From the NCBI GenBank assembly GCA_965202915.1, contig OZ241847.1:2194242-2258241 (forward strand): DNA of 64,000 bases, in the 5' to 3' direction. Below are positions 6,531 through 64,000 of this stretch, piece after piece. Position numbers and translations under genes: made by a program. The notes beneath the pieces were generated by a model. The model had not been told where the DNA came from. It worked only from the letters and a program-made list of their open reading frames with translations, and did no database searches. Numbering within the stretch: position 1 is the stretch's first letter; the number at the start of each line of letters is the position of its first letter. This DNA comes from Gammaproteobacteria bacterium (GTDB lineage Bacteria > Pseudomonadota > Gammaproteobacteria > Eutrophobiales > Eutrophobiaceae).

Positions 6531-8872
6531 TCGCCACCGCCCAAACTGGCTATTAATGTTACTATATGTGCCGCAACCGCGGACGAGGCAGCACGCACGA
6601 CAGAATCTTCGTCATATTCCTCCCGGCCATCGGAATTATCTTCGGAGTCACTGACAAGTCTCTTATACATTGCTAATGTGAGAATGCCCACCCCCACCCT
6701 GAAGCGGTGCCTGATGATCTCTCTCTTACCCTCATCTGATTCTTTGGAAATTAAGTACAAGAGATATTTATTGGCTTTGTTCACATATATGGTTAGCGTT
6801 TCTCCTCTGGACACATGACCGCCCGACTCTTCATTGTAGTTATGTTCATCCCAATATTCTTGCTCCACCCACTCAATATTCGGAAATTCCCGAGCCGGTC
6901 TCTCTTGATTGTTTGTGTCTGTTTCATCCCCGGGCGGGTTTCTTTGAGTTTCTTCCGCACTGGCAATTTTGATCATTACGTCAAAAGTCAGAGGATCTGT
7001 TCTTTCCGGGTTTGAGTCATCAAAGCCAAACTGAACGGCAATTTCATCTCCTACTTTTGCCCCCGCGGGAGTTATGACTTTTATTCGGAATTTTCCATTA
7101 CGCAGAGAACCCGAATGTGGCAATATATCAGGTGATGGGTGAATAAACTCCCCTCGGTTGGCATCTCTTATCAAATAATCATTTTGAGCGTCTGTTCTAC
7201 ATTCAATTCGTCTGTAAGAATTTATGGGAACACTCTTAACATTGCCCTCCTCCAAGTGCGTGGGAGTTAAATATGTGGGGAACAATTTCCCTTCATATTG
7301 ATCCTCACCTCCGGATGTTGCAATCTGACTGTCAACAATACTTCCAACATCAAATAGTTCTTGAAGATCCGGATTATCTTTAACAAGATTGGAAAGAAAT
7401 TCTTTATCGGTCTGCTCTTCTATTTGCTCGCTAATACGACGGTTTTTTATTTCTCTTGCATATTCCCTAAGTTCTCCGCTCCCGGCCAAGGCATCTATAA
7501 TAATTTTCTTTAGTTCTCTCGTGAGCCCTATGTCCGCCATTCTTTCCCTGTCCGATTTAAACACGGCGGCTCGCGCCGTATTATCCATGGCATTACAATC
7601 TATTTGAACAATTAAATGGTTTCTCAAATCATCCAGTCGCGCCTTCCGCAACAGACTGGCTCTGTCCGCAGATTGGGACTGACCGTTGATCGTGTAGAAC
7701 ATTCTGTATGGCTGTTTGCGCAAATAATCCTTCATTTTCTTCAACCCAAAATAAGATATTCGGATAGTCCCCAAATCCGAATTTTCAGAATTTTCAATTA
7801 CGTTTTCCAAGTCAACTTCGCTTTCCTCACTTCTTTCATCATCGGATTTGAGCACTATATTCATACCGGAAAAAGTTCTCGGTGCAATACCCTCCGCTCT
7901 AAGACCGCTCCTTGTGGGTTGAGCATCAAAATCATAAAGACGAACAGGCAAGGCACAATTTATAAGGTTGGTCGTAAGCGCATCATATAGTCCTATATCA
8001 ACCGCACGGGCACGAGGCCCTATATCGTATTCATATAACTTCACAATGCTGCCACCATTGATGACGACACCGATATCCTCTCTGCCAAAAGCCTTGATTT
8101 CATCGGTTTCAAAACAGGCAATTTCTCCGTCGGGACAAAAATACTCAACCACTGGCAAATCCTCTCCTTCTCGAACTCCTCTTACCCTTATCAAAGTCCA
8201 TCCCCATAGACCATCCGAACCGTAAGTGGTTCTTTTGGACAGAATAAACTTATACATCCCCGCCCTGATATCTGCTCGGGTACAAAAAGGTATGGATCCG
8301 GTGCTACCCATATTAAATCGACCTTGGACAAACGGAATGCCTTCCTTATTCTTTTCTCCAAGAGATAAAAAAGTTTTTCCAAAATCTGTATGATTTTGCC
8401 CCTCACCAAAATCAACTATCGTATAGTTTGGACAAATATCATTTCTCCTTCCTGTTCTCTTAATACCAATCAAAACACTTTTTTCAGCCAGATCAGTCCT
8501 TTGATTCGGGCTTAACAAAGCCAACCTGCCTTCTTGAACTTTGGGGAAAAAGTGTTTGACAGCCTCGCTCATATCTTGGGGAGCTGATTCACCATAAAAA
8601 TCTATTTGCTCTTCCTTTGCCCTGCGCATAAGGATTGCGTCAATGGAATTAATGATTAACTCTGCCAACGCACCGACTGGTTGGCTCGTTTGGACGCTCA
8701 CCCTGTCCCAATTTTTATCCGCGCCGCCGTAAGGCTTCCAATTTTCATCAGCGCTAAATTCAGGCTGGCTTTCCATGAACCGATTAACGTCGTCGGCTGA
8801 CAAAGCACCGAGAAACTTATTCGCTATTAACTTTGAAAGTGGGCTGTTGAAAAATTTTCTCGAATCATTCAT
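6527..8872 (-). CDS. Large protein with an N-terminal GHKL ATPase-like head and a ~550-aa uncharacterised C-terminal region. It is the first gene of the low-GC cassette.
   Basis: 781 aa. Bergerat motifs are AELIINSIDA (motif I), IVDFGEGQNH (motif II) and QGRFNMGSTGS (motif III). I recognised no motifs in the C-terminal region. It overlaps the dcm start by 4 nt, which suggests translational coupling. Confidence 0.6.
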   Translation of the reverse strand: MNDSRKFFNSPLSKLIANKFLGALSADDVNRFMESQPEFSADENWKPYGGADKNWDRVSVQTSQPVGALAELIINSIDAILMRRAKEEQIDFYGESAPQDMSEAVKHFFPKVQEGRLALLSPNQRTDLAEKSVLIGIKRTGRRNDICPNYTIVDFGEGQNHTDFGKTFLSLGEKNKEGIPFVQGRFNMGSTGSIPFCTRADIRAGMYKFILSKRTTYGSDGLWGWTLIRVRGVREGEDLPVVEYFCPDGEIACFETDEIKAFGREDIGVVINGGSIVKLYEYDIGPRARAVDIGLYDALTTNLINCALPVRLYDFDAQPTRSGLRAEGIAPRTFSGMNIVLKSDDERSEESEVDLENVIENSENSDLGTIRISYFGLKKMKDYLRKQPYRMFYTINGQSQSADRASLLRKARLDDLRNHLIVQIDCNAMDNTARAAVFKSDRERMADIGLTRELKKIIIDALAGSGELREYAREIKNRRISEQIEEQTDKEFLSNLVKDNPDLQELFDVGSIVDSQIATSGGEDQYEGKLFPTYLTPTHLEEGNVKSVPINSYRRIECRTDAQNDYLIRDANRGEFIHPSPDILPHSGSLRNGKFRIKVITPAGAKVGDEIAVQFGFDDSNPERTDPLTFDVMIKIASAEETQRNPPGDETDTNNQERPAREFPNIEWVEQEYWDEHNYNEESGGHVSRGETLTIYVNKANKYLLYLISKESDEGKREIIRHRFRVGVGILTLAMYKRLVSDSEDNSDGREEYDEDSVVRAASSAVAAHIVTLIASLGGGE

Positions 8873-22075: not shown

Positions 22076-22152
22076 TGGTAGCGGGGGCAGGATTTGAACC
22101 TGCGACCTTCGGGTTATGAGCCCGACGAGCTGCCAGACTGCTCCACCCCGCA
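22076..22152 (-). tRNA. Initiator tRNA-fMet (anticodon CAU).
   Basis: The reverse complement is TGCGGGGTGGAGCAGTCTGGCAGCTCGTCGGGCTCATAACCCGAAGGTCGCAGGTTCAAATCCTGCCCCCGCTACCA. It is nearly identical to E. coli tRNA-fMet, with three G-C pairs in the anticodon stem and an unpaired 1:72 position. Confidence 0.9.
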
Positions 22153-55583: not shown

Positions 55584-56177
55584 ATGAATAATCATTATGC
55601 AATCAAGCTCCCAACTGTGCCGCAAGGCTTGCCGGGAAAATGCCTGGTACTGTGCTGGCCGTTACTGCTGGCGACGGACATATATGCCGCCGAACTGATC
55701 CTCGGCAAAGAGCGCATCCCACCCGGTATTGAGCTCATCTTTGAAGGTGCCGTCAAAGATGACGTGACGCCCGCCGGCCAACATTTGCCAATCGCTAAAA
55801 CCCACGTACACCTGGAGGCATTGGCGAACTGGGCTGAAGACGGGTCGGCACCGGCGGGCGCCCCCGGCGGAGGCTTCATACCTTACCTGAAGATCACTGC
55901 TGAAGTCACCAATGAAACAAGCGGGGCTTCAACACTGGTGGACCTGGTACCGCACATTAACCTGATTGACAACCTGCACTACGCACGCAACATGTCCCTG
56001 CCGGGCAAGATCACCGATAAATACGAGGTGACTTTCCACGTTGTCCCCCCCGGCAGATTCGACCTTGCCTATCACAAGGATTGGCGGGTGCAATACGAAA
56101 AAGGCTTATTCAAAGAAGCAAAATTCCGCATCCGGCACATCGACTTCGAGGAAATTGCGCTGGCGACCAGGGAGTAA
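55584..56177 (+). CDS. Periplasmic iron/copper-binding protein of the P19/FtrA family (an Ftr1-system accessory protein).
   Basis: ...HVHLEALANWAEDG...PYLKITAEVTNETSGA...VPHINLIDNLHYARNMSLP...YEVTFHVVPP resembles C. jejuni P19. Confidence 0.6.
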   Translation: MNNHYAIKLPTVPQGLPGKCLVLCWPLLLATDIYAAELILGKERIPPGIELIFEGAVKDDVTPAGQHLPIAKTHVHLEALANWAEDGSAPAGAPGGGFIPYLKITAEVTNETSGASTLVDLVPHINLIDNLHYARNMSLPGKITDKYEVTFHVVPPGRFDLAYHKDWRVQYEKGLFKEAKFRIRHIDFEEIALATRE

Positions 56178-56260
56178 GGCCTGCTGGTAAACACCGTCCG
56201 CCGCTGACCGGGGCAAACCGTGGCGATACAGTACACTCGCCGGTCGGCCGCGGGCATTGA

Positions 56261-56782
56261 TCAGTCCGGTTTAAACGAATGCCGATACAGGATGGCCGGT
56301 ACTGATGCAATCAAGATCGCCAGGAAGCAGATCATGCTCCATTCCGCAATACTCATACTCATGAAACGCCATTGCACCTCGGCACATTCGCCGGAACCGG
56401 TGAACACCATGCCAATGGCCTCCCGTAGCGGGAAGACTTCCAACATGTACTCCAGGCCCGGCCCACATTCAGGCACTTCATCCGGCGGCAAATGCTGTAG
56501 CCAGATCTGGCGCCCGGCAATCGCCGCGCCCGCCAACGCGATAACGCTGATCACCCCATGATAAATTTTGCCCACAAATTGGCGCGGACCGTGAATCACC
56601 GCAATCAGGGCGACCAGGGCGATCAATACATACGCTAACCGTTGCAGGATACAAAGCGGACAGGGTTCAAGTCCGACCCCGTATTCCAGATACAGTCCAA
56701 ACCCAAGCAATCCGATGCAGGCCAGGAGCAGCAGCAGAAAATACGCCCTTGATGTAACCATGCTGATCATCCTGACAAACAT
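56261..56782 (-). CDS. dsbB: Disulfide bond formation protein B.
   Basis: LEPCPLCILQRLAYVL is the CxxC motif in the first periplasmic loop. There are four TM segments and the second cysteine pair ECGPGLEYM. Confidence 0.85.
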   Translation of the reverse strand: MFVRMISMVTSRAYFLLLLLACIGLLGFGLYLEYGVGLEPCPLCILQRLAYVLIALVALIAVIHGPRQFVGKIYHGVISVIALAGAAIAGRQIWLQHLPPDEVPECGPGLEYMLEVFPLREAIGMVFTGSGECAEVQWRFMSMSIAEWSMICFLAILIASVPAILYRHSFKPD

Positions 56783-56790
56783 ATCATATT

Positions 56791-57783
56791 TTATGAATTT
56801 AACCGGCTTTTGAAAAACGCCGGAATGCGTCTTTCCAACCAATAGGTCGATTGAAACGGGAATCTTCCGCCGACAAATCCAACGTGACCGCCCGTATCGG
56901 CAAGTTCAAGCGTCACCTGATCCGATAATTCAGCCAAACCGGGAATGGCCGCCGCGGTCAGGAAAGGATCATCGCGGGCATGAACGATCAAGGTCGGTAC
57001 CCGGATGTCTTTTATAAATTGCCGGCTGCTGCATTTTGCATAATAATCATCGGCGTTTTTAAACCCATGCAAACGTGCGGTAACGCAATCATCGAATAAC
57101 GCAAAGCTGCTCCATTTATGCATCCGGGTCATATCAAAAGGCGTCGGTCTGTGCAAAAATTTGTAACGCATCTTATTTGCAAGACGGTTTATCAGATAAC
57201 GCCGGTACAAGCGTGACGCCCCTCGATCGAGTCTTGCCGCACCCTTGGCCAATTCAAACGGAACCGATACCGCCACCGCAACCTTGATCATGCTCCGATT
57301 GCCCTCTTCCCCCAGATACTTTAACAAAACATTGCCCCCCAGAGAAAACCCTATTATGGCGACGTCCCGATTTGGAAAATGGCGCGCCAGATATTTGATA
57401 AAATACCGCAGATCACCCGTGTCACCGGCATGATAACTTCTTTGCAATCTGTTATGCCTGCCGCCGCATCCTCTGAAATGCATAAGCACACCCTGCCAGC
57501 CCTGCCGTTCAACCCTGTGCAACATACCCCTTATATAGCGCGAATTAACAGACCCCTCAAGACCATGTAACAACACTATAATCGGGCCGTCACAGTCGCG
57601 GGTCCAAACCAAATCAACAAAGTCGCCATCATCGGTATCCAGAGTTTGCCATCGTAATTCAAGCCTGTTCCGCCGGCGGAACAGGGCCGGCCATATAGTC
57701 TGGAGATGTTTATTCCTAAGCCACCAGGCCGGCTGAAATTGACTTTCGATGATCACGGTATGGTCACAAAAACCACTTCCCAA
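56791..57783 (-). CDS. Alpha/beta-hydrolase of the YheT/ABHD1-3 type.
   Basis: ...IVLLHGLEGSVNSRYIRGML...GFSLGGN... is an abhydrolase fold. Confidence 0.7.
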   Translation of the reverse strand: MGSGFCDHTVIIESQFQPAWWLRNKHLQTIWPALFRRRNRLELRWQTLDTDDGDFVDLVWTRDCDGPIIVLLHGLEGSVNSRYIRGMLHRVERQGWQGVLMHFRGCGGRHNRLQRSYHAGDTGDLRYFIKYLARHFPNRDVAIIGFSLGGNVLLKYLGEEGNRSMIKVAVAVSVPFELAKGAARLDRGASRLYRRYLINRLANKMRYKFLHRPTPFDMTRMHKWSSFALFDDCVTARLHGFKNADDYYAKCSSRQFIKDIRVPTLIVHARDDPFLTAAAIPGLAELSDQVTLELADTGGHVGFVGGRFPFQSTYWLERRIPAFFKSRLNS

Positions 57784-57843
57784 AATACCTCATCTTGCCG
57801 GCAACCCGGCAAAACTTTCTCCTGATAGCGCGGCGACGCTTGT

Positions 57844-58887
57844 TCAAGGATTCTCCCCCTGTTCGAGTGTGTGCCGCATATTGCCAAGCCCAGGCGATGG
57901 ATGGAGTATTACGGACCGGTCCGGTTTGTTTGACAGGCATATCCGGTCGGCATCCGGACGGTCCAGTTCCATCACCACCAGCATAATCGTTTTCTCACCG
58001 CTATCCCTGATGCAGGACAGTACCGTGCCTATTGACCGGTCATTGCCATCATAACAAAGGGTGTCACCCACGTTTGCGTCCGCAGCCACCGACGCCGGCA
58101 TAAGGCGGCGTTTTACCGTGCCGCGGTAATGCAGGCGAGCAATCACTTCCTGCCCCGGAAAGCAGCCTTTGTTCAGGTTGATTGCAGACAGTAAATCCAG
58201 GTTCAGCATTTGCGGCAGAAACTGTTCGCTGGTCCTGGTGCCGACCCGGGGCAGGCCCTGCTTAATATCCAGATATTGCCAGGATAGGTCGTCAGTAAAA
58301 GACACCAACACTTCCCGGTTCTCGATAACGGACCGCATATCAGCAAAATCAGACAAGATCATCACCCTCCCCGAATGCTCAGGCAGACCGATTATTACCC
58401 GATTTTCATGCACGATGACCCCGCCGGGCGGACAGTCAATTCCCCCCCCGGTGTGCAGCGCATTAACCGTCTCCATATCCGCCGCACCCGATAAAACATA
58501 ATCATTACCGGCCTCCTCTATTTTTACATTGGCGCGCAACTTAAACATGGCCAGACGCGGTGACACCACAGCGGTTAAATCCTCAGGCAGCAGCATAAAA
58601 AAGTCGCCGCTGATATTGGCAAGTATAAAAAAACTGATCACCTGACCCCTGGGATTGCACCAGGCATTGAGCTGACAGCCCGAAGCCGCAATCGCGGTAA
58701 CGTCATTACTGAATTGACCGTTTAGAAATGACAGGGCATCGGGCCCCGACACCTTAATGATCGCCAAATGAGACAGATCAAACAGCCAGCACCGGTCTGG
58801 CCCCTGAAGTTCGGATACATCGCCAAGGTCGGCAAACCGGGTGAACCGACTCGACCGTTGCAGAAGGGTACGCCATTCCCGGTTCAT
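57844..58887 (-). CDS. ygfZ: Folate-binding Fe-S cluster repair/tRNA modification protein YgfZ.
   Basis: It is GcvT-like: ...IIKVSGPDALSFLNGQFSNDV... It lies directly downstream of sdhE, as in E. coli. Confidence 0.8.
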   Translation of the reverse strand: MNREWRTLLQRSSRFTRFADLGDVSELQGPDRCWLFDLSHLAIIKVSGPDALSFLNGQFSNDVTAIAASGCQLNAWCNPRGQVISFFILANISGDFFMLLPEDLTAVVSPRLAMFKLRANVKIEEAGNDYVLSGAADMETVNALHTGGGIDCPPGGVIVHENRVIIGLPEHSGRVMILSDFADMRSVIENREVLVSFTDDLSWQYLDIKQGLPRVGTRTSEQFLPQMLNLDLLSAINLNKGCFPGQEVIARLHYRGTVKRRLMPASVAADANVGDTLCYDGNDRSIGTVLSCIRDSGEKTIMLVVMELDRPDADRICLSNKPDRSVILHPSPGLGNMRHTLEQGENP

Positions 58888-58900
58888 AGATACCCAAAAA

Positions 58901-59152
58901 CTATTTAGTCTTTACTTGCCGTAACAGGGCAATGATGGCATTGAAATCATCCCGCCGCGGCCGGCCCTTATCCATGATCCAGGCGAGAATATCCAAATCG
59001 GCCTCATCCAGCATATCATCGAAACTCAGTTTTTGATTGTCCGACAGCCGGTCATAATGCCGTTCAATAAAGCCCTGCAACAACAAATCCATCTCCTTGA
59101 CGCCGCGCCGGCAACGCCACCGCAGACGGGAGCGACTGGCCTCCATAGACAC
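58901..59152 (-). CDS. sdhE: FAD assembly factor SdhE (YgfY/CptB).
   Basis: RWRCRRGVKEMDLLL is the RGxxE motif. It aligns with E. coli SdhE and starts 3 nt after the sdhB stop. Confidence 0.85.
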   Translation of the reverse strand: MSMEASRSRLRWRCRRGVKEMDLLLQGFIERHYDRLSDNQKLSFDDMLDEADLDILAWIMDKGRPRRDDFNAIIALLRQVKTK

Positions 59153-59154
59153 GA

Positions 59155-59943
59155 TTAAACCGTGCGGGTAAGCATCAATTTTTTAACCTCGGCAATGGCC
59201 TTCGCCGGGTTCAATCCTTTTGGACAGGTATTGGTACAATTCATAATCGTATGACAACGATACAGACGGAACGGGTCTTCCAGTTCATCCAGACGCTCAC
59301 CGGTATTTTCATCCCGACTATCGACAATCCAGCGATAGGCCTGAAGCAGTATCGCCGGCCCAAGATAGCGGTCCCCATTCCACCAATAGCTCGGACAACT
59401 GGTGGAACAACATGCGCACAATATGCACTCATACAAACCATCCAGCCGGGCCCGCTCCGGTTTTGATTGCAGACGTTCAGCATCCGGCGGCGGCGGACTC
59501 TGGGTTTGCATCCAGGGTTTAATGGATGCGTATTGCGCATAAAAATGGGTCAGATCAGGCACCAGGTCCTTGATCACCGGCAGATGCGGTAACGGATAGA
59601 TTGCAATATCACCGGCAAAATTTTTGATCGCCCTGGTACAGGCCAGGGTATTAGTGCCACCAACGTTCATCGCACAGGAACCACAGATCCCCTCCCGGCA
59701 GGAGCGACGAAAAGTGAGTGTCGAATCCAACTCATTTTTAATGTAAATCAGAGCATCCAGCACCATCGGCCCGCATTGATCAAGATCGATCCGGTAACTA
59801 TCCATGACCGGATTGTGATCCTTGTCCGGGTCCCAGCGATAGACGCGCAAAGTCTTGTCGCGTGCCGCACCATTGGCGGCGTTCACGGTCTTGCCCGATT
59901 TGACCCTGGAATTTTTTGGTAACGTGAATTCAGCCATGATCAC
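59155..59943 (-). CDS. sdhB: Succinate dehydrogenase iron-sulfur subunit.
   Basis: [25 protein letters not shown] and [12 protein letters not shown] are the three Fe-S cluster motifs. Confidence 0.95.
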
Positions 59944-59964
59944 TCTCTCAAATAGTTATAATAA

Positions 59965-61752
59965 TCAATAGACCCGTTTCTTAGGAGGAATAACCTCAAC
60001 CTCGTCAGTCAACGTGAACAAATGCGTTGGCCGATAACCAAACGACACCTTGCCGTTGGCATCGATCCAGGTCAAAGTATGTTTCATCCAGTTTTCATCA
60101 TCCCGATCGGGATAATCCTCCCTGGCGTGCCCGCCCCGGCTTTCCTGTCTATTATCGGCGGCGTGTATGCTCACGATTGCACACTGCAACAGATTTCTTA
60201 GCTCCAGTGTCTCCACCAGATCGGTATTCCAGATCATGCTTCTGTCTTCCAATTTAACGTCGGCAAATGAATCCCAGATCCCGGCCATTACCTCAATACC
60301 CTCGCGCATAACCTCGCCGGTGCGAAATACCGCGGCGTGACCCTGCATATTGCGTTGCATATTGGTGCGGATCCGTGACGTAGGAACCGAGCCGTTGCTA
60401 TGACGAAGCTGATCCAGTTCCTCTATCGCCTGCGCACCCGCGTCCTGAAGGGACTTATGCGCCATCCCCGGCTTGATATTTTCCGCGCAATAATTTGCGG
60501 CCGCCCGCCCAAACACGATCAGATCCAGCAGCGAATTGGAACCCAGCCTGTTGGCGCCGTGCACCGACACACAGGCCGCTTCACCGATAGACATCAAGCC
60601 GGGCACCACCGCGTCCGGATCATCACCGTCCAGGGTCACCACCTGGCCGTGGTAATTGGTCGGGATCCCACCCATATTGTAATGCACGGTCGGGATCACC
60701 GGTATCGGTTCCCTGGAGACGTCAACCCCGGCAAAAATCCTGGCCGACTCGGCGATCCCAGGCAGACGCTCATTGATCACCTCCGTGCCCAGATGCTCCA
60801 GATGCAGATGCACGTGATCCTTATCCGCCCCCACGCCCCGGCCTTCACGGATCTCGACCGTCATTGAACGGCTGACCACGTCACGCGATGCAAGGTCTTT
60901 CGCGGACGGCGCATAACGCTCCATGAATCGTTCGCCGTCCGAATTGGTTAAATAGCCACCCTCACCCCTGACCCCCTCGGTGATTAAACAACCGGAACCA
61001 TAAATCCCGGTCGGGTGAAATTGAATAAATTCCATATCCTGCAACGGCAACCCGGCGCGCAACACCATCGCATTCCCGTCACCGGTGCAGGTATGCGCCG
61101 AAGTGCAGGAAAAATAAGCGCGGCCATAGCCGCCGGTGGCCAATACCACCTGGTGGGCGCGAAACCGATGCAAGGTGCCGTCGTCCAACTTCCAGGCCAT
61201 CACCCCGACGCAGGCGCCGTCATCATCCATAATCAGATCCAGCGCAAAGTATTCAACAAAAAAATCGGCGTCATACTTTAACGATTGCTGATACAGCGTA
61301 TGCAATATCGCATGGCCGGTACGGTCCGCCGCCGCACAGGTTCGCTGGGCGGTGCCTTCACCATAATTGGTCGTCATGCCGCCAAATGGACGCTGATAGA
61401 TCTTGCCGTCCTCGGTGCGCGAAAACGGCACCCCGTAATGCTCCAGTTCTATCACCGACGGAGCCGCCTCACGACACATATACTCGATGGCATCCTGATC
61501 GCCCAGCCAATCGGACCCCTTGACCGTGTCGTACATATGCCAGCGCCAATCATCCTCTCCCATGTTACCGAGCGCGGCGCTCATTCCGCCCTGAGCCGCG
61601 ACGGTGTGGCTGCGGGTCGGAAACACCTTGGTGATACAGGCGGTCGCCAGGCCCTTCACGGCCATGCCGAACGTCGCCCGTAACCCGGCGCCGCCGGCAC
61701 CGACCACGACCACGTCATACCGATGTTCAATAATCTGATAACCGTCGGCCAT
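59965..61752 (-). CDS. sdhA: Succinate dehydrogenase flavoprotein subunit.
   Basis: [13 protein letters not shown] is the FAD Rossmann motif, and ...[10 protein letters not shown]... carries the FAD-linkage His. Confidence 0.95.
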
Positions 61753-61758
61753 CGCGGT

Positions 61759-62142
61759 TCAAAACCCCAGAGACATTTTCAATACCGCCACCAGCGCCGC
61801 CAACCCGGCCAAACAGAACAAAAACTTAACCAGCATGATGCACGCAATCTTTTGCCATTCCGGTTGAATATAATCCTCTATTACCACCTGCATACCGAGT
61901 GCCGCGTGATAATAAAGTGCAATCAACATCAGCAACATAAGCACACAGCGCATTGGCGATAACTGCAACCAGCTATTTATGCCGGCATAATCCATCGTAG
62001 TCATACTCACCAGGGAATAAACAAACCACACGCTGAGCGGCACCAGCAAAACCGCGGTCAATCTTTGCGCCCACCAATGGCGCAAACCCTCTTTGGCGGA
62101 ACCCAGGCCGCGCGCCCTGGCTATCGGGGTTTGCAGACTCAT
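61759..62142 (-). CDS. sdhD: Succinate dehydrogenase hydrophobic membrane anchor subunit.
   Basis: 127 aa with 3 TM segments, in the sdhC-sdhD-sdhA-sdhB order. Confidence 0.85.
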   Translation of the reverse strand: MSLQTPIARARGLGSAKEGLRHWWAQRLTAVLLVPLSVWFVYSLVSMTTMDYAGINSWLQLSPMRCVLMLLMLIALYYHAALGMQVVIEDYIQPEWQKIACIMLVKFLFCLAGLAALVAVLKMSLGF

Positions 62143-62522
62143 ACACTGCCACCCGCAAGCCAGGTCGCAACGCTAAGCAACAACGCAACCACGATGGCGG
62201 CGTAACCGCTTTTATAACTGGTCTCAAGCTCCAGGCCGAAACCCGCGTCCCAGAATAAATGCCTGATGCCGTTGCACAAGTGGTAATAGAAAGAAAGCAC
62301 AAACGCAAACAACAGACACTGACCGTACCAACTGCTGATATGAGTCTGCATCAGCGCGAAATATTGCGGCCCGGTGGCCGCCGCCGTTAACCAGCAGGCA
62401 AGCAACACCGCGCCCAGCGCCAAAAATACCCCGGTGCCGCGATGACTGATCGACAACAGCGAAGTCAACTGCGGTTTATATATCTGCAAATGCGGTGATA
62501 AGGGTCTATTTACCATCGCCAT
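62139..62522 (-). CDS. sdhC: Succinate dehydrogenase cytochrome b556 subunit. The start was taken at the internal MAMVNRP.
   Basis: ...RPLSPHLQIYKPQLTSLLSISHRGTG... is the SdhC signature. Confidence 0.85.
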   Translation of the reverse strand: MAMVNRPLSPHLQIYKPQLTSLLSISHRGTGVFLALGAVLLACWLTAAATGPQYFALMQTHISSWYGQCLLFAFVLSFYYHLCNGIRHLFWDAGFGLELETSYKSGYAAIVVALLLSVATWLAGGSV

Positions 62523-62593
62523 ACATGCTGCCTCCTCCTGATCACGTTTTATATCCGGTACATCAATCGCCCGGCGGGTGAATCCAAACCCGC

Positions 62594-62755
62594 CTAGAAA
62601 TCGATACAGCGCCCGCGCCGTTCCCAATCACCGTAGCGCGTCGGCTCCGGCCCCTGCGGACCTCCGATTTCACCGCCGGCGTTTTTTTTCACGTCCATAA
62701 CCGGCTCAGGTTGAATATCGTCCGGTTTTTTAGCATCATTGGTTTTTGCCTGCAT
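62594..62755 (-). CDS. DUF1674/SDHAF4-like small protein upstream of sdhC. The start is uncertain: the MQAK start gives 54 aa, and the alternative MDVKK start at 62698 gives 34 aa.
   Basis: The C-terminal ...GGEIGGPQGPEPTRYGDWERRGRCIDF matches the conserved GGPxGPEPTRYGDWE+KGR..DF signature of DUF1674 (SDHAF4). Confidence 0.6.
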   Translation of the reverse strand: MQAKTNDAKKPDDIQPEPVMDVKKNAGGEIGGPQGPEPTRYGDWERRGRCIDF

Positions 62756-62872
62756 TCGTAAATTATATCCCAGGCCGCCAAAAAAAACAGCACTTTTGTA
62801 CGTCGGAATACCGGCGAAAGTCCGGCCGCAATTAAAAACCACCAGAATAACAAGGAGACAGCATAAACCGGG

Positions 62873-63352
62873 ATGAGCAGAGAGAACCCTTTCCTATTGC
62901 CGCTATCGATTCCGGTGGCGGTATCGCCCAGGCTGATCAGGCTGCTGTACGCGGTGGCACTGGGGGCCGGCCTGGCAATATGGATCAGTGCCGCCACAGT
63001 GATAATAAAATCCGCGGCGTCACTATTATTATTGCTTTATATCGCGCTCCTGCGGCGCCGGCTCCAATCCAACCGGGCGCACGATCCCAGACAAATAACG
63101 CTACTCCATGATAACAGTTGGCGGATCATTACCCATGCCGGCGAGACCCTGCCGGCAACACAGGGCCGGGCGATCTTTATTCATCGCGATCTGATCGTGC
63201 TGCCTCTGCACTACAATCGGCGCAAAAAGATCCTGCTGTTGACGCCTGACAGCCTCGACAATACACTCCTGCGGCGCTTGCGGGTGCGCCTGCAATACCT
63301 CAGCGACCAGCCACCGCTCAGCACCAAAAATGTTTTATCTTCCAGGCAATAA
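62873..63352 (+). CDS. cptA: YgfX/CptA-family inner membrane protein.
   Basis: There are two N-terminal TM segments and then ...ITLLHDNSWRI...RAIFIHRDLIVLPL...KKILLLTPDSLDNTLLRRLRVRL. This parallels E. coli YgfX (...IRLLMDGRLRWQG...HLWLAADSMDEAEWRDLRRIL). Confidence 0.55.
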   Translation: MSRENPFLLPLSIPVAVSPRLIRLLYAVALGAGLAIWISAATVIIKSAASLLLLLYIALLRRRLQSNRAHDPRQITLLHDNSWRIITHAGETLPATQGRAIFIHRDLIVLPLHYNRRKKILLLTPDSLDNTLLRRLRVRLQYLSDQPPLSTKNVLSSRQ

Positions 63353-64000
63353 ACAACTTGCTCAGCGGACTCAGCGCATGCCGTTGCCGCAGGAATGAAT
63401 CGCAATGACGGATATCGACCCCGCACTGACGCGCCAGTAAACGGCACAGGATCAATGCATGCAACTGTTGCCGGCGGTCGGTCGCCGGCATCCGCTCATA
63501 GAGCCGCTGCAAATACCGCCGCAATTCCGTAAATAATGGAATAAAGACCGCCCGCAGCTCAGCCGCTTCCTGATTCAAACAGGCCGGAATAGAGGCCCGA
63601 CTTAAATAGCCGCCGGGGATAAAAATACGATCCTGCCGCAAATGAAAAGCGGTTTGCCCAAGCAGGCCGAACAACGCATTGACGGCCGCGGTTTTTGCCA
63701 AAACCTCCAGCGTATCGGGATCCGAACAGCCGCCTATCTCGGCACTCAGCCGCCAGATTGTACCGGGGCCGTTCATCAAAACCCGGATACAGGCATCCAA
63801 CGATTCAGGCTGCTCAATGCAGATCAAAGAATCGGCATGAGCGATGGGCCCGATCAGCCTGGCCCGGTCTATTGTGTGCACCGCAATGATCTCCGCCAAC
63901 GCACGGCTGATCGGATGCCCGGCCCTGTGCCGGTAAAGCCGGTCGATCTCCTCACTCCACCACAGTAACTTCAACCTGGCCACGCCCGGATCCTGGCAGG
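63318..64000 (-). CDS. Squalene/phytoene-synthase-family protein. Only the C-terminal part is in the window, and the N-terminus lies beyond the window end.
   Basis: LKLLWWSEEIDRL...HPISRALAEI...FGLLGQTAFHLRQDR...GGYL loosely follows the SQS_PSY second conserved region. The reading frame stays open to position 64000. Confidence 0.35.
   Translation of the reverse strand, partial: CQDPGVARLKLLWWSEEIDRLYRHRAGHPISRALAEIIAVHTIDRARLIGPIAHADSLICIEQPESLDACIRVLMNGPGTIWRLSAEIGGCSDPDTLEVLAKTAAVNALFGLLGQTAFHLRQDRIFIPGGYLSRASIPACLNQEAAELRAVFIPLFTELRRYLQRLYERMPATDRRQQLHALILCRLLARQCGVDIRHCDSFLRQRHALSPLSKLFIAWKIKHFWC

Follow-up and report, generated by a model that had tools for sequence, protein, structure and literature searches.

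A complex II operon carrying SDHAF4-like, SdhE and YgfZ genes beside a divergent ygfX in a gammaproteobacterium

The succinate dehydrogenase (SDH, complex II) locus described here lies on contig OZ241847.1 of a gammaproteobacterium of the Eutrophobiaceae (assembly GCA_965202915.1, positions 2,194,242 to 2,258,241 of the forward strand). This whole stretch of 64,000 nucleotides (nt) is called the window, and all coordinates are counted within it. By open reading frame (ORF) listing and profile searches, seven tightly packed genes are found on the minus strand in the order DUF1674 mini-ORF, sdhC, sdhD, sdhA, sdhB, sdhE and ygfZ, with ygfX diverging upstream. An earlier note on this DNA had grouped sdhE, the mini-ORF and ygfX around sdhCDAB, and all of these genes are present at or near the places it named. 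We consider it probable that the locus forms a self-contained unit for the production of complex II (succinate:quinone oxidoreductase), in which one minus-strand operon carries four structural subunits and three maturation factors, and YgfX is most likely an accessory of the pathway.

The four structural genes occupy the center of the operon. The cytochrome b556 subunit is encoded by sdhC (62139..62522, minus; 127 amino acids (aa)), which scores 126.1 bits with TIGR02970 against a cut-off of 52.3. Its ATG sits 7 nt behind GGAGGAGG, with the mini-ORF stop 71 nt upstream. The membrane anchor gene sdhD (61759..62142, minus; 127 aa; TIGR02968, 90.5 bits against 41.8) shares its first 4 nt with sdhC. 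The flavoprotein gene sdhA (59965..61752, minus; 595 aa) is mitochondrial-like and reaches 977 bits with TIGR01816 (sdhA_forward) against a cut-off of 727. The iron-sulfur (Fe-S) subunit gene sdhB (59155..59943, minus; 260-262 aa) contains three cysteine cluster motifs and matches NF004616 with 376.7 bits against 228. The NCBIfam models used are equivalogs for sdhC, sdhD and sdhA, and a subfamily model for sdhB.

Two maturation genes follow sdhB. The first, sdhE (58901..59152, minus; 81-83 aa), belongs to the SDHAF2/Sdh5 flavinylation factor family (PF03937, 84.2 bits against a cut-off of 27) and carries the RGxxE motif as RGVKE at residues 14-18; with the E. coli-type equivalog model it scores 63, under the cut-off of 120. 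The gene had been placed 3 nt after the sdhB stop and followed by ygfZ. The order stands, but the start shifts, since the frame opens at a GTG 2 nt past the sdhB stop and the ATG of public gene calls lies 8 nt past it. The second, ygfZ (57844..58887, minus; 347 aa), starts 13 nt past the sdhE stop and is the last gene of the unit. It encodes a folate-binding Fe-S cluster maintenance protein of the IBA57/CAF17 family (COG0354; TIGR03317, 98.3 bits against 49), in which the pattern KGC[FY]xGQE is kept as KGCFPGQE at residue 240. Its score with the E. coli-type equivalog PRK09559 is 114.7 bits, under the cut-off of 219. Where it differs from other YgfZ/IBA57 genes is in closing an sdh operon, a position that implies co-regulation with its client. 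In E. coli, loss of ygfZ lowers SDH activity from 30 to 1.9 U/mg, about 15-fold (PMC13036160, following Waller 2010).

The successive junctions from sdhC to ygfZ measure -4, 6, about 21-27, 2-8 and 13 nt, and a single operon is therefore the simplest reading. The left end of the unit extends past the limit first drawn for it, to ygfZ (57844) and a terminator-like hairpin (57792..57815, minus) 29 nt past the ygfZ stop. This hairpin is weak; its T-run is interrupted, and the next gene's ribosome-binding site comes directly behind it. The same gene order is found in three other assemblies of the source organism, in one relative (YgfX 51% identical) and in 36 of 80 loci of other species, so the arrangement goes beyond chance. 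Judged by sequence, the operon carries bacterial counterparts of mitochondrial SDHAF4, SDHAF2 (SdhE) and IBA57 (YgfZ).

The SDHAF4-like gene is the mini-ORF at the head of the operon (62594..62755, minus). It encodes 53 aa, MQAKTNDAKKPDDIQPEPVMDVKKNAGGEIGGPQGPEPTRYGDWERRGRCIDF, with a variable, charged N-terminal part and an invariant C-terminal part of about 25 residues. The C-terminus reads ...GGPQGPEPTRYGDWERRGRCIDF before the stop at 62594. The hidden Markov model (HMM) of Pfam family PF07896 (DUF1674) matches over positions 10-50 of its 50 and scores 62.5 bits (cut-off 23.5), which bears out the DUF1674 signature noticed earlier upstream of sdhC. The likely start is the ATG at 62755, giving 53 aa, rather than the GTG of an 82-aa ORF. 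Gene calls in public records (NCBI/ENA/Logan) include the identical 53-aa protein. All 694 detectable homologues carry PF07896, and some of them are named 'succinate dehydrogenase assembly factor 4' by NCBI.

Alignment of 33 family members reveals 21 invariant positions. All of them but the initiator Met fall in the C-terminal part, the N-terminal part being the one that varies. The protein ends in ...CIDF followed directly by the stop, and D52 and F53 are invariant in the 33 aligned members and in all 36 gammaproteobacterial loci with this gene order. Over the final 26 codons, the differences between the window and each of these 36 loci average 11.5 synonymous and 3.9 non-synonymous codons, about 3 to 1. 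Such a pattern is that of a translated gene under constraint and indicates purifying selection on the mini-ORF. A mini-ORF not conserved in relatives would have spoken against the earlier note; it is conserved.

PF07896 includes human SDHAF4 and yeast Sdh8, which were reportedly the subject of a 2014 study by Van Vranken. Among solved structures, the mini-ORF matches human SDHAF4 in 8DYD/8DYE (8dyd_C, E 2e-11) and Rhodobacter sphaeroides RhR2 (2K5K, E 5e-7). It shares with SDHAF4/Sdh8 (8DYD, 8DYE; Sharma 2024, PMC10784507) a small size, the near-identical C-terminal segment of about 25 residues, the terminal Asp-Phe and a variable N-terminal part that is probably disordered here as well; over the final 23 residues, 21 of 23 are identical to human SDHAF4. 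The side-chain contacts of SDHAF4 with SDHA were taken from Supplementary Tables 2 and 4 of PMC10784507 and read against the 8dyd_C alignment. E84, E92, R95, Y96, D98, R101, K102, R104, D107 and F108 correspond to E29, E37, R40, Y41, D43, R46, R47, R49, D52 and F53 of the mini-ORF, and the only change is K102 to Arg. The partners are alike too, namely a mitochondrial-like SdhA and an SDHAF2-family protein. The mini-ORF differs from human SDHAF4 in lacking a mitochondrial targeting region, in having half the length, and in being the first gene of an sdh operon instead of an unlinked nuclear gene. The conserved features mark it as a real gene and a predicted SDHAF4 orthologue. Modeling by AlphaFold2 (33 sequences) gives a mean predicted local distance difference test score (pLDDT) of 56.5 and a predicted template modeling score (pTM) of 0.14, with one four-residue helix as the only secondary structure. 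A fold of such low confidence would be consistent with the disorder-to-order behavior of SDHAF4.

The presumed partner, SdhA, shows 63% identity with human SDHA and 54% with its E. coli counterpart. It is closer to mitochondrial SDHA chains in the Protein Data Bank (842-917 bits) than to the E. coli chain (679). The FAD (flavin adenine dinucleotide)-linking histidine is present as H49, aligned with human H99. Of the 16 residues of human SDHA that contact SDHAF4, 14 are identical in the window. We had considered a distinctive contact surface in the SdhA of SDHAF4 carriers and ruled it out, the same 14 of 16 being identical in E. coli SdhA.

On the plus strand, ygfX (62873..63352, 159 aa) diverges from the sdh operon. 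The protein had been proposed as a divergently encoded membrane protein of the YgfX/CptA family, and the PF07254 (Cpta_toxin) match of 33.7 bits against a cut-off of 27.3 confirms this. Hydropathy reveals a hydrophobic hairpin of about 40 residues, that is, two transmembrane segments at about residues 20-60, broken by Lys46 and followed by RRR. The conserved C-terminal motif is LLTPDSLDNTLLRRLRVRL. Pairwise BLAST finds no match, and the identity to E. coli YgfX in an alignment is about 20%; a profile of gammaproteobacterial YgfX homologues, however, aligns with E. coli YgfX over 115 columns (hhalign probability 93.8%, E 1.8e-7). A search of a database of 5.8 billion proteins returned 3 matches only, and YgfX is therefore taken to evolve very fast.

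The distribution of the cluster was surveyed with one genome per species. At least 592 loci with a DUF1674 relative were found, and the best 80, ranked by similarity to the query, were fetched, their ORFs called and searched with the window proteins. In 36 of these 80, DUF1674 immediately precedes sdhC-sdhD-sdhA-sdhB, with sdhE next in every case where the contig extends that far, and 2 more are cut by contig ends. The co-occurrence of DUF1674 genes with sdhC raised by the earlier note thus recurs across the sampled gammaproteobacterial loci. The sdh-linked loci are labelled Gammaproteobacteria, with names including Steroidobacteraceae, Nevskiales, Chromatiaceae, Methylomonas, Legionellales, Salinisphaerales, Alkalilimnicola, Granulosicoccaceae and Tahibacter. 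Among the best 80, the closest species-representative locus belongs to an uncultured gammaproteobacterium and encodes an SdhA of 83% identity. By contrast, 42 of the 80, nearly all labelled Alphaproteobacteria, have no sdh gene within 8 kb of DUF1674. Rhodobacter sphaeroides RhR2 and other alphaproteobacterial DUF1674 proteins belong to the same family and have the same C-terminal signature, but their genes are joined to other neighbors, unlike those of the window and the other gammaproteobacterial loci. With 36 linked gammaproteobacterial loci and 42 unlinked alphaproteobacterial ones, the linkage of DUF1674 to sdh is a gammaproteobacterial trait, of which the window is an ordinary example.

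We notice two forms of the cluster. Type I, the form of the window, has ygfX divergent upstream and ygfZ after sdhE (8 of 8 loci with both genes visible). Type II has ygfZ divergent upstream and ygfX after sdhE (again 8 of 8), so that the position of ygfX is strictly coupled to that of ygfZ. The two forms can be interconverted, as read from gene order, by a single inversion of the DUF1674-sdhCDAB-sdhE block between its flanking genes, and therefore are not independent inventions. They show that ygfZ-[block]-ygfX is an old cluster retained across deep gammaproteobacterial lineages. For detecting YgfX in the loci we used a local HMM built from the fetched loci, and Pfam confirmed PF07254 for members in both cluster positions. 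Among gammaproteobacterial loci with at least 600 nt on each side, YgfX is present in 13 of 22. Four Type II loci without a detected ygfX (L005, L036, L038, L054) have a gene for an RpoE-like extracytoplasmic function (ECF) sigma factor after sdhE, and in L005 a 106-aa ORF after sdhE may represent a YgfX that is truncated or has diverged very far.

The gene neighborhoods can be compared with those of E. coli K-12. There, ygfX and sdhE lie on the same strand, followed by divergent ygfZ, with fldB, xerD, dsbC, recJ, prfB and lysS within 9 kb. It had been stated that ygfX-ygfY of E. coli is far from sdh, and the distance proves to be 2.3 Mb, sdhCDAB standing between gltA and sucABCD. The E. coli and window enzymes are alike in having four subunits, two membrane anchors (SdhC and SdhD) and the order C-D-A-B. 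The window has neither sucAB/sucCD downstream nor gltA upstream, and three maturation genes instead. This agrees with the earlier remark that sdhCDAB without sucAB departs from the enteric order; no sucAB is found after sdhB, where the downstream genes are sdhE, ygfZ, a YheT-like hydrolase gene and dsbB. The E. coli/Serratia sdhE-ygfX (cptB-cptA) locus resembles the cluster in bringing SdhE, YgfX and YgfZ together, and Type II loci share with it the divergent ygfZ and recJ-prfB-lysS, which lie immediately beside ygfZ in at least 10 of them. It differs in having no DUF1674 and no sdh genes. Compared with it, ygfX of the window is divergent instead of co-transcribed with sdhE, and ygfZ is co-transcribed instead of divergent.

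From the Type II-like order and the shared recJ-prfB-lysS neighborhood we infer that the E. coli 'cptBA' locus is a positional homologue of the SDH cluster, equivalent to Type II minus DUF1674-sdhCDAB. The lineages with the SDH cluster are generally placed near the base of the Gammaproteobacteria. Loss or replacement in the enteric lineage would be more economical than insertion in the others, because E. coli SdhA diverges from both the window and mitochondrial SdhA and the cluster occurs in basal lineages. We therefore put forward, tentatively and as somewhat short of an even chance, that E. coli ygfX-sdhE/ygfZ is the remnant of an ancestral ygfZ / SDHAF4-sdhCDAB-sdhE-ygfX operon. The middle segment would have been lost toward the enterics, where a divergent gltA-sdhCDAB-suc SDH not needing SDHAF4 took over. 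YgfX would then be a dedicated, membrane-bound accessory of SdhA flavinylation and hand-off that lacks a counterpart in mitochondria.

The binding and hand-off steps in the cluster can be modeled on the human SDHA-SDHAF2-SDHAF4 structures. SdhE, with its RGxxE motif, would hold apo-SdhA while FAD is covalently attached at His49. The 53-aa SDHAF4 orthologue, disordered alone, would then bind flavinylated SdhA, first docking through Glu29/Glu37 on Arg121. Its C-terminus (...GRCIDF-COOH) would fold into SdhA, with Asp52/Phe53 entering the dicarboxylate site, shielding the flavin and releasing the dicarboxylate and SdhE. In this way it might keep SdhA competent for assembly until SdhB docks. YgfZ, as an IBA57-family protein, would support the three Fe-S clusters of SdhB, and SdhB would replace the SDHAF4-like protein before the dimer joins SdhCD. 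The weakest step concerns YgfX, a two-helix inner-membrane protein that may hold SdhE/SdhA near SdhCD; its role in the SDH pathway is a suggestion of ours. In the human structures, the terminal Asp-Phe of SDHAF4 plugs the dicarboxylate site and two glutamates bind SDHA Arg171 (PMC10784507). The bound conformation of SDHAF4 clashes with SDHB binding, which indicates action before assembly (PMC10784507).

Several points weigh against a unit of this kind. The role of bacterial DUF1674 proteins is assigned by homology to the human system, and the SdhA contact surface, equally conserved in E. coli without SDHAF4, speaks for compatibility with such a partner and leaves its use unproven. In Alphaproteobacteria, DUF1674 stands apart from sdh and has htpX, rsmB and rpe for neighbors. 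As the best of at least 592 matches, the 80 loci do not form a random sample, and cluster forms related by one inversion give no independent evidence of selection on adjacency. No ygfX is detectable in 9 of the 22 well-flanked gammaproteobacterial loci, and clusters of this type can thus do without YgfX. Shewanella YgfX failed to bind YgfY, and deletion of its gene had no phenotype (PMC8621075).

The points on YgfX lead to the best-surviving alternative, which we regard as doubtful although worth serious consideration. DUF1674, sdhE and ygfZ would be the true maturation genes, and YgfX, together with an adjoining gene of squalene/phytoene-synthase fold, would be a mere inherited neighbor with an unrelated membrane function, kept in place by slow decay of gene order. 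Since one inversion accounts for both cluster forms, the adjacency may have a single origin, and the 9 of 22 loci lacking ygfX, its very fast evolution and the silent Shewanella deletion fit the same picture. On the other hand, from basal gammaproteobacterial lineages to E. coli ygfX has stayed adjacent to sdhE or the sdh block, even though genes were rearranged and sdh was lost, and a physical YgfX-SdhE interaction is reported for Serratia (PMC5042078, citing McNeil 2013). We still regard YgfX, kept next to the block, as most likely a membrane-side accessory of the SDH pathway.

A second alternative concerns the mini-protein, which, instead of being an assembly chaperone, might reversibly plug or regulate the dicarboxylate site and so limit catalysis or the production of reactive oxygen by SdhA, whether free or assembled. 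Perhaps it is a general partner of several SdhA-like flavoproteins such as FrdA or NadB. The terminal Asp of human SDHAF4 does mimic a dicarboxylate and occlude the active site (PMC10784507), the contact residues, located in the catalytic site, show conservation throughout the enzyme family, and the alphaproteobacterial gene is unlinked to sdh. The gammaproteobacterial gene, however, is the first sdh cistron and adjoins no other flavoenzyme gene, and the clash of SDHAF4 with SDHB points to pre-assembly action (PMC10784507). We consider this alternative improbable and keep to an assembly function for the mini-protein.

The third alternative treats YgfX/SdhE as a type IV toxin-antitoxin pair (CptA/CptB), in which YgfX inhibits FtsZ/MreB, SdhE counteracts it, and the proximity to sdh is incidental. 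PF07254 is named for the toxin and YgfX is homologous to E. coli YgfX, for which toxin-antitoxin activity has been reported, as for Acinetobacter; results on homologues conflict, according to the summary given in PMC8621075. In the window, ygfX (plus) and sdhE (minus) are 3.7 kb apart with five genes between, in place of the adjacency and co-transcription of CptA/CptB. Lying on opposite strands at this distance, they cannot form a toxin-antitoxin operon, and as separate transcription units they have no coupled expression. Across many lineages ygfX is found in a fixed housekeeping context rather than in mobile or variable ones, and SdhE carries the motif for flavinylation, with its gene set inside the sdh operon. 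No toxicity of YgfX was seen in Shewanella (PMC8621075), nor, by the account in PMC5042078, in Serratia. We thus find it unlikely that YgfX is a toxin, and the toxin-antitoxin reading of the pair very improbable indeed. The earlier note had argued that the context favors SDH biogenesis over toxicity, and the opposite strands, the 3.7 kb and the presence of YgfX beside the block in 13 of 22 loci agree with it, as guilt by association. A non-toxin role of YgfX is an idea already published and is not new.

The reading of the mini-ORF as a chance or untranslated ORF, or as a leader peptide in the sdh 5' region, which its small size, the absent Shine-Dalgarno sequence and its omission by gene callers in two related public assemblies might suggest, is effectively refuted by conservation, given a Pfam score 39 bits over the cut-off, 694 homologues with an invariant C-terminus, coding-type substitutions and 23 C-terminal residues near-identical to an experimentally characterized human protein.

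The components belong to known families and the layout occurs widely among non-enteric Gammaproteobacteria, which makes it useful but not novel. In 2018, no bacterial SDHAF4 homologue was known to the group that later published the human structures, and the release of bacterial SdhE was posed as a question (PMC5773532). Putative SDHAF4 homologues in alpha- and gammaproteobacteria were mentioned in 2023-2024 (PMC10238741, PMC10784507), with Rhodobacter the only bacterium shown in the alignment of PMC10784507. A 2025 analysis of SDH neighborhoods mentions SdhE, and neither SDHAF4 nor YgfZ (PMC12727194). In the literature searched, 'DUF1674' occurs in two papers only, both unrelated. We found no published account of the operon linkage, the two inversion forms or the E. 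coli relic reading, in a search that falls short of most subscription journals, and we make no claim of priority.

The position of the SDHAF4 orthologue as the first gene of the sdh operon in a broad set of non-enteric Gammaproteobacteria provides genomic-context evidence for a bacterial function. Culturable carriers, including Methylomonas and Tahibacter, offer genetically accessible systems for the function of SDHAF4 and YgfX. If the relic reading is true, basal gammaproteobacterial lineages would be natural bacterial models for the SdhE-release step. The layout sets the disputed YgfX, toxin or SdhE partner, in a fixed SDH context, and gives a simple evolutionary account of the grouping of ygfX, sdhE and ygfZ in E. 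coli. The mini-ORF is missed by some gene callers and should be looked for when such sdh operons are annotated or heterologously expressed. In L086 and L087, public assemblies of a related organism with the same cluster, the gene calls skip an intact 57-aa DUF1674 ORF (6712-6885, minus) ending ...RYGDWERGGRCIDF. Small SDHAF4 genes are probably under-annotated.

The divergent intergenic region between ygfX and the mini-ORF (62756..62872) is 117 nt long. By eye, we notice a perfect TATAAT at 62762-62767 in the minus-strand reading, 6 nt before the mini-ORF ATG, and no Shine-Dalgarno sequence precedes this ATG. In L087, the relative with a YgfX of 51% identity, a TATAAT stands 7 nt ahead of the mini-ORF ATG (6883-6900, minus). 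Taken together, a TATAAT 6-7 nt before the ATG and the missing Shine-Dalgarno sequence suggest that the sdh operon transcript may start leaderless or near-leaderless at the mini-ORF. A consensus promoter scan of the intergenic region returned nothing and does not list the TATAAT, because no -35 element matches. Several further gammaproteobacterial loci have ATAAT-like boxes 5-9 nt before the mini-ORF start. A hairpin between the mini-ORF and sdhC was considered as a regulatory element and dropped; its folding energy is no better than that of shuffled sequence (z -0.30), and the spacer is just 18 nt in L087.

At the other end of the operon, a YheT-like alpha/beta hydrolase gene (PRK10985, 366.8 bits) and dsbB lie 3' of ygfZ (56261-57783, minus). 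Read-through from the sdh operon into the hydrolase gene is possible, because the ribosome-binding site of that gene sits directly behind the hairpin. Several Type I loci (L006, L022, L051, L086/L087) likewise have both genes 3' of ygfZ, and L004, L013 and L014 have one of the two. An Rfam scan of 56000-64000 gave no RNA family, the sole weak match being a chance long non-coding RNA; in the entire 64-kb window, a transfer RNA gene at 22079-22152 (minus) is the only match above the gathering score.

Among the alphaproteobacterial DUF1674 loci (42 among L007-L082), the htpX protease gene and rsmB are upstream on the opposite strand, and rpe, often with an acetyl-CoA synthetase gene, is downstream. 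Four metagenome-assembled genomes labelled Klebsiella pneumoniae, Enterobacteriaceae and Phycisphaerae (L022, L078, L015, L032) carry the non-enteric gammaproteobacterial cluster. Their SdhA identity to the window is 80-82% in the two Klebsiella-labelled loci and the Enterobacteriaceae-labelled one, the latter over a short SdhA fragment, and 71% in the Phycisphaerae-labelled locus. The labels or the binning of these loci look wrong.

The gene of squalene/phytoene-synthase fold (63318..64000, minus) is cut by the window end, converges on ygfX with a 35-nt overlap, and matches PF00494 with 34.4 bits as a partial sequence. At full length (L002:4602-5438) the protein has 278 aa and scores 48.7 bits with PF00494 (SQS_PSY); the HpnD model gives 76.6 bits, far under its cut-off of 278.6. 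No Asp-rich catalytic motifs were found in it by eye, and a search against solved structures gave no match. It has 5 unnamed homologues. Its gene, a conserved neighbor in this form of cluster, adjoins ygfX in some 9 of 12 Type I loci. Just outside the window, the gene overlaps the end of a haloacid dehalogenase (HAD) phosphatase gene, which itself follows ubiG (TIGR01983, 252.7 bits), and it may belong to a ubiquinone-related operon adjoining the SDH cluster.

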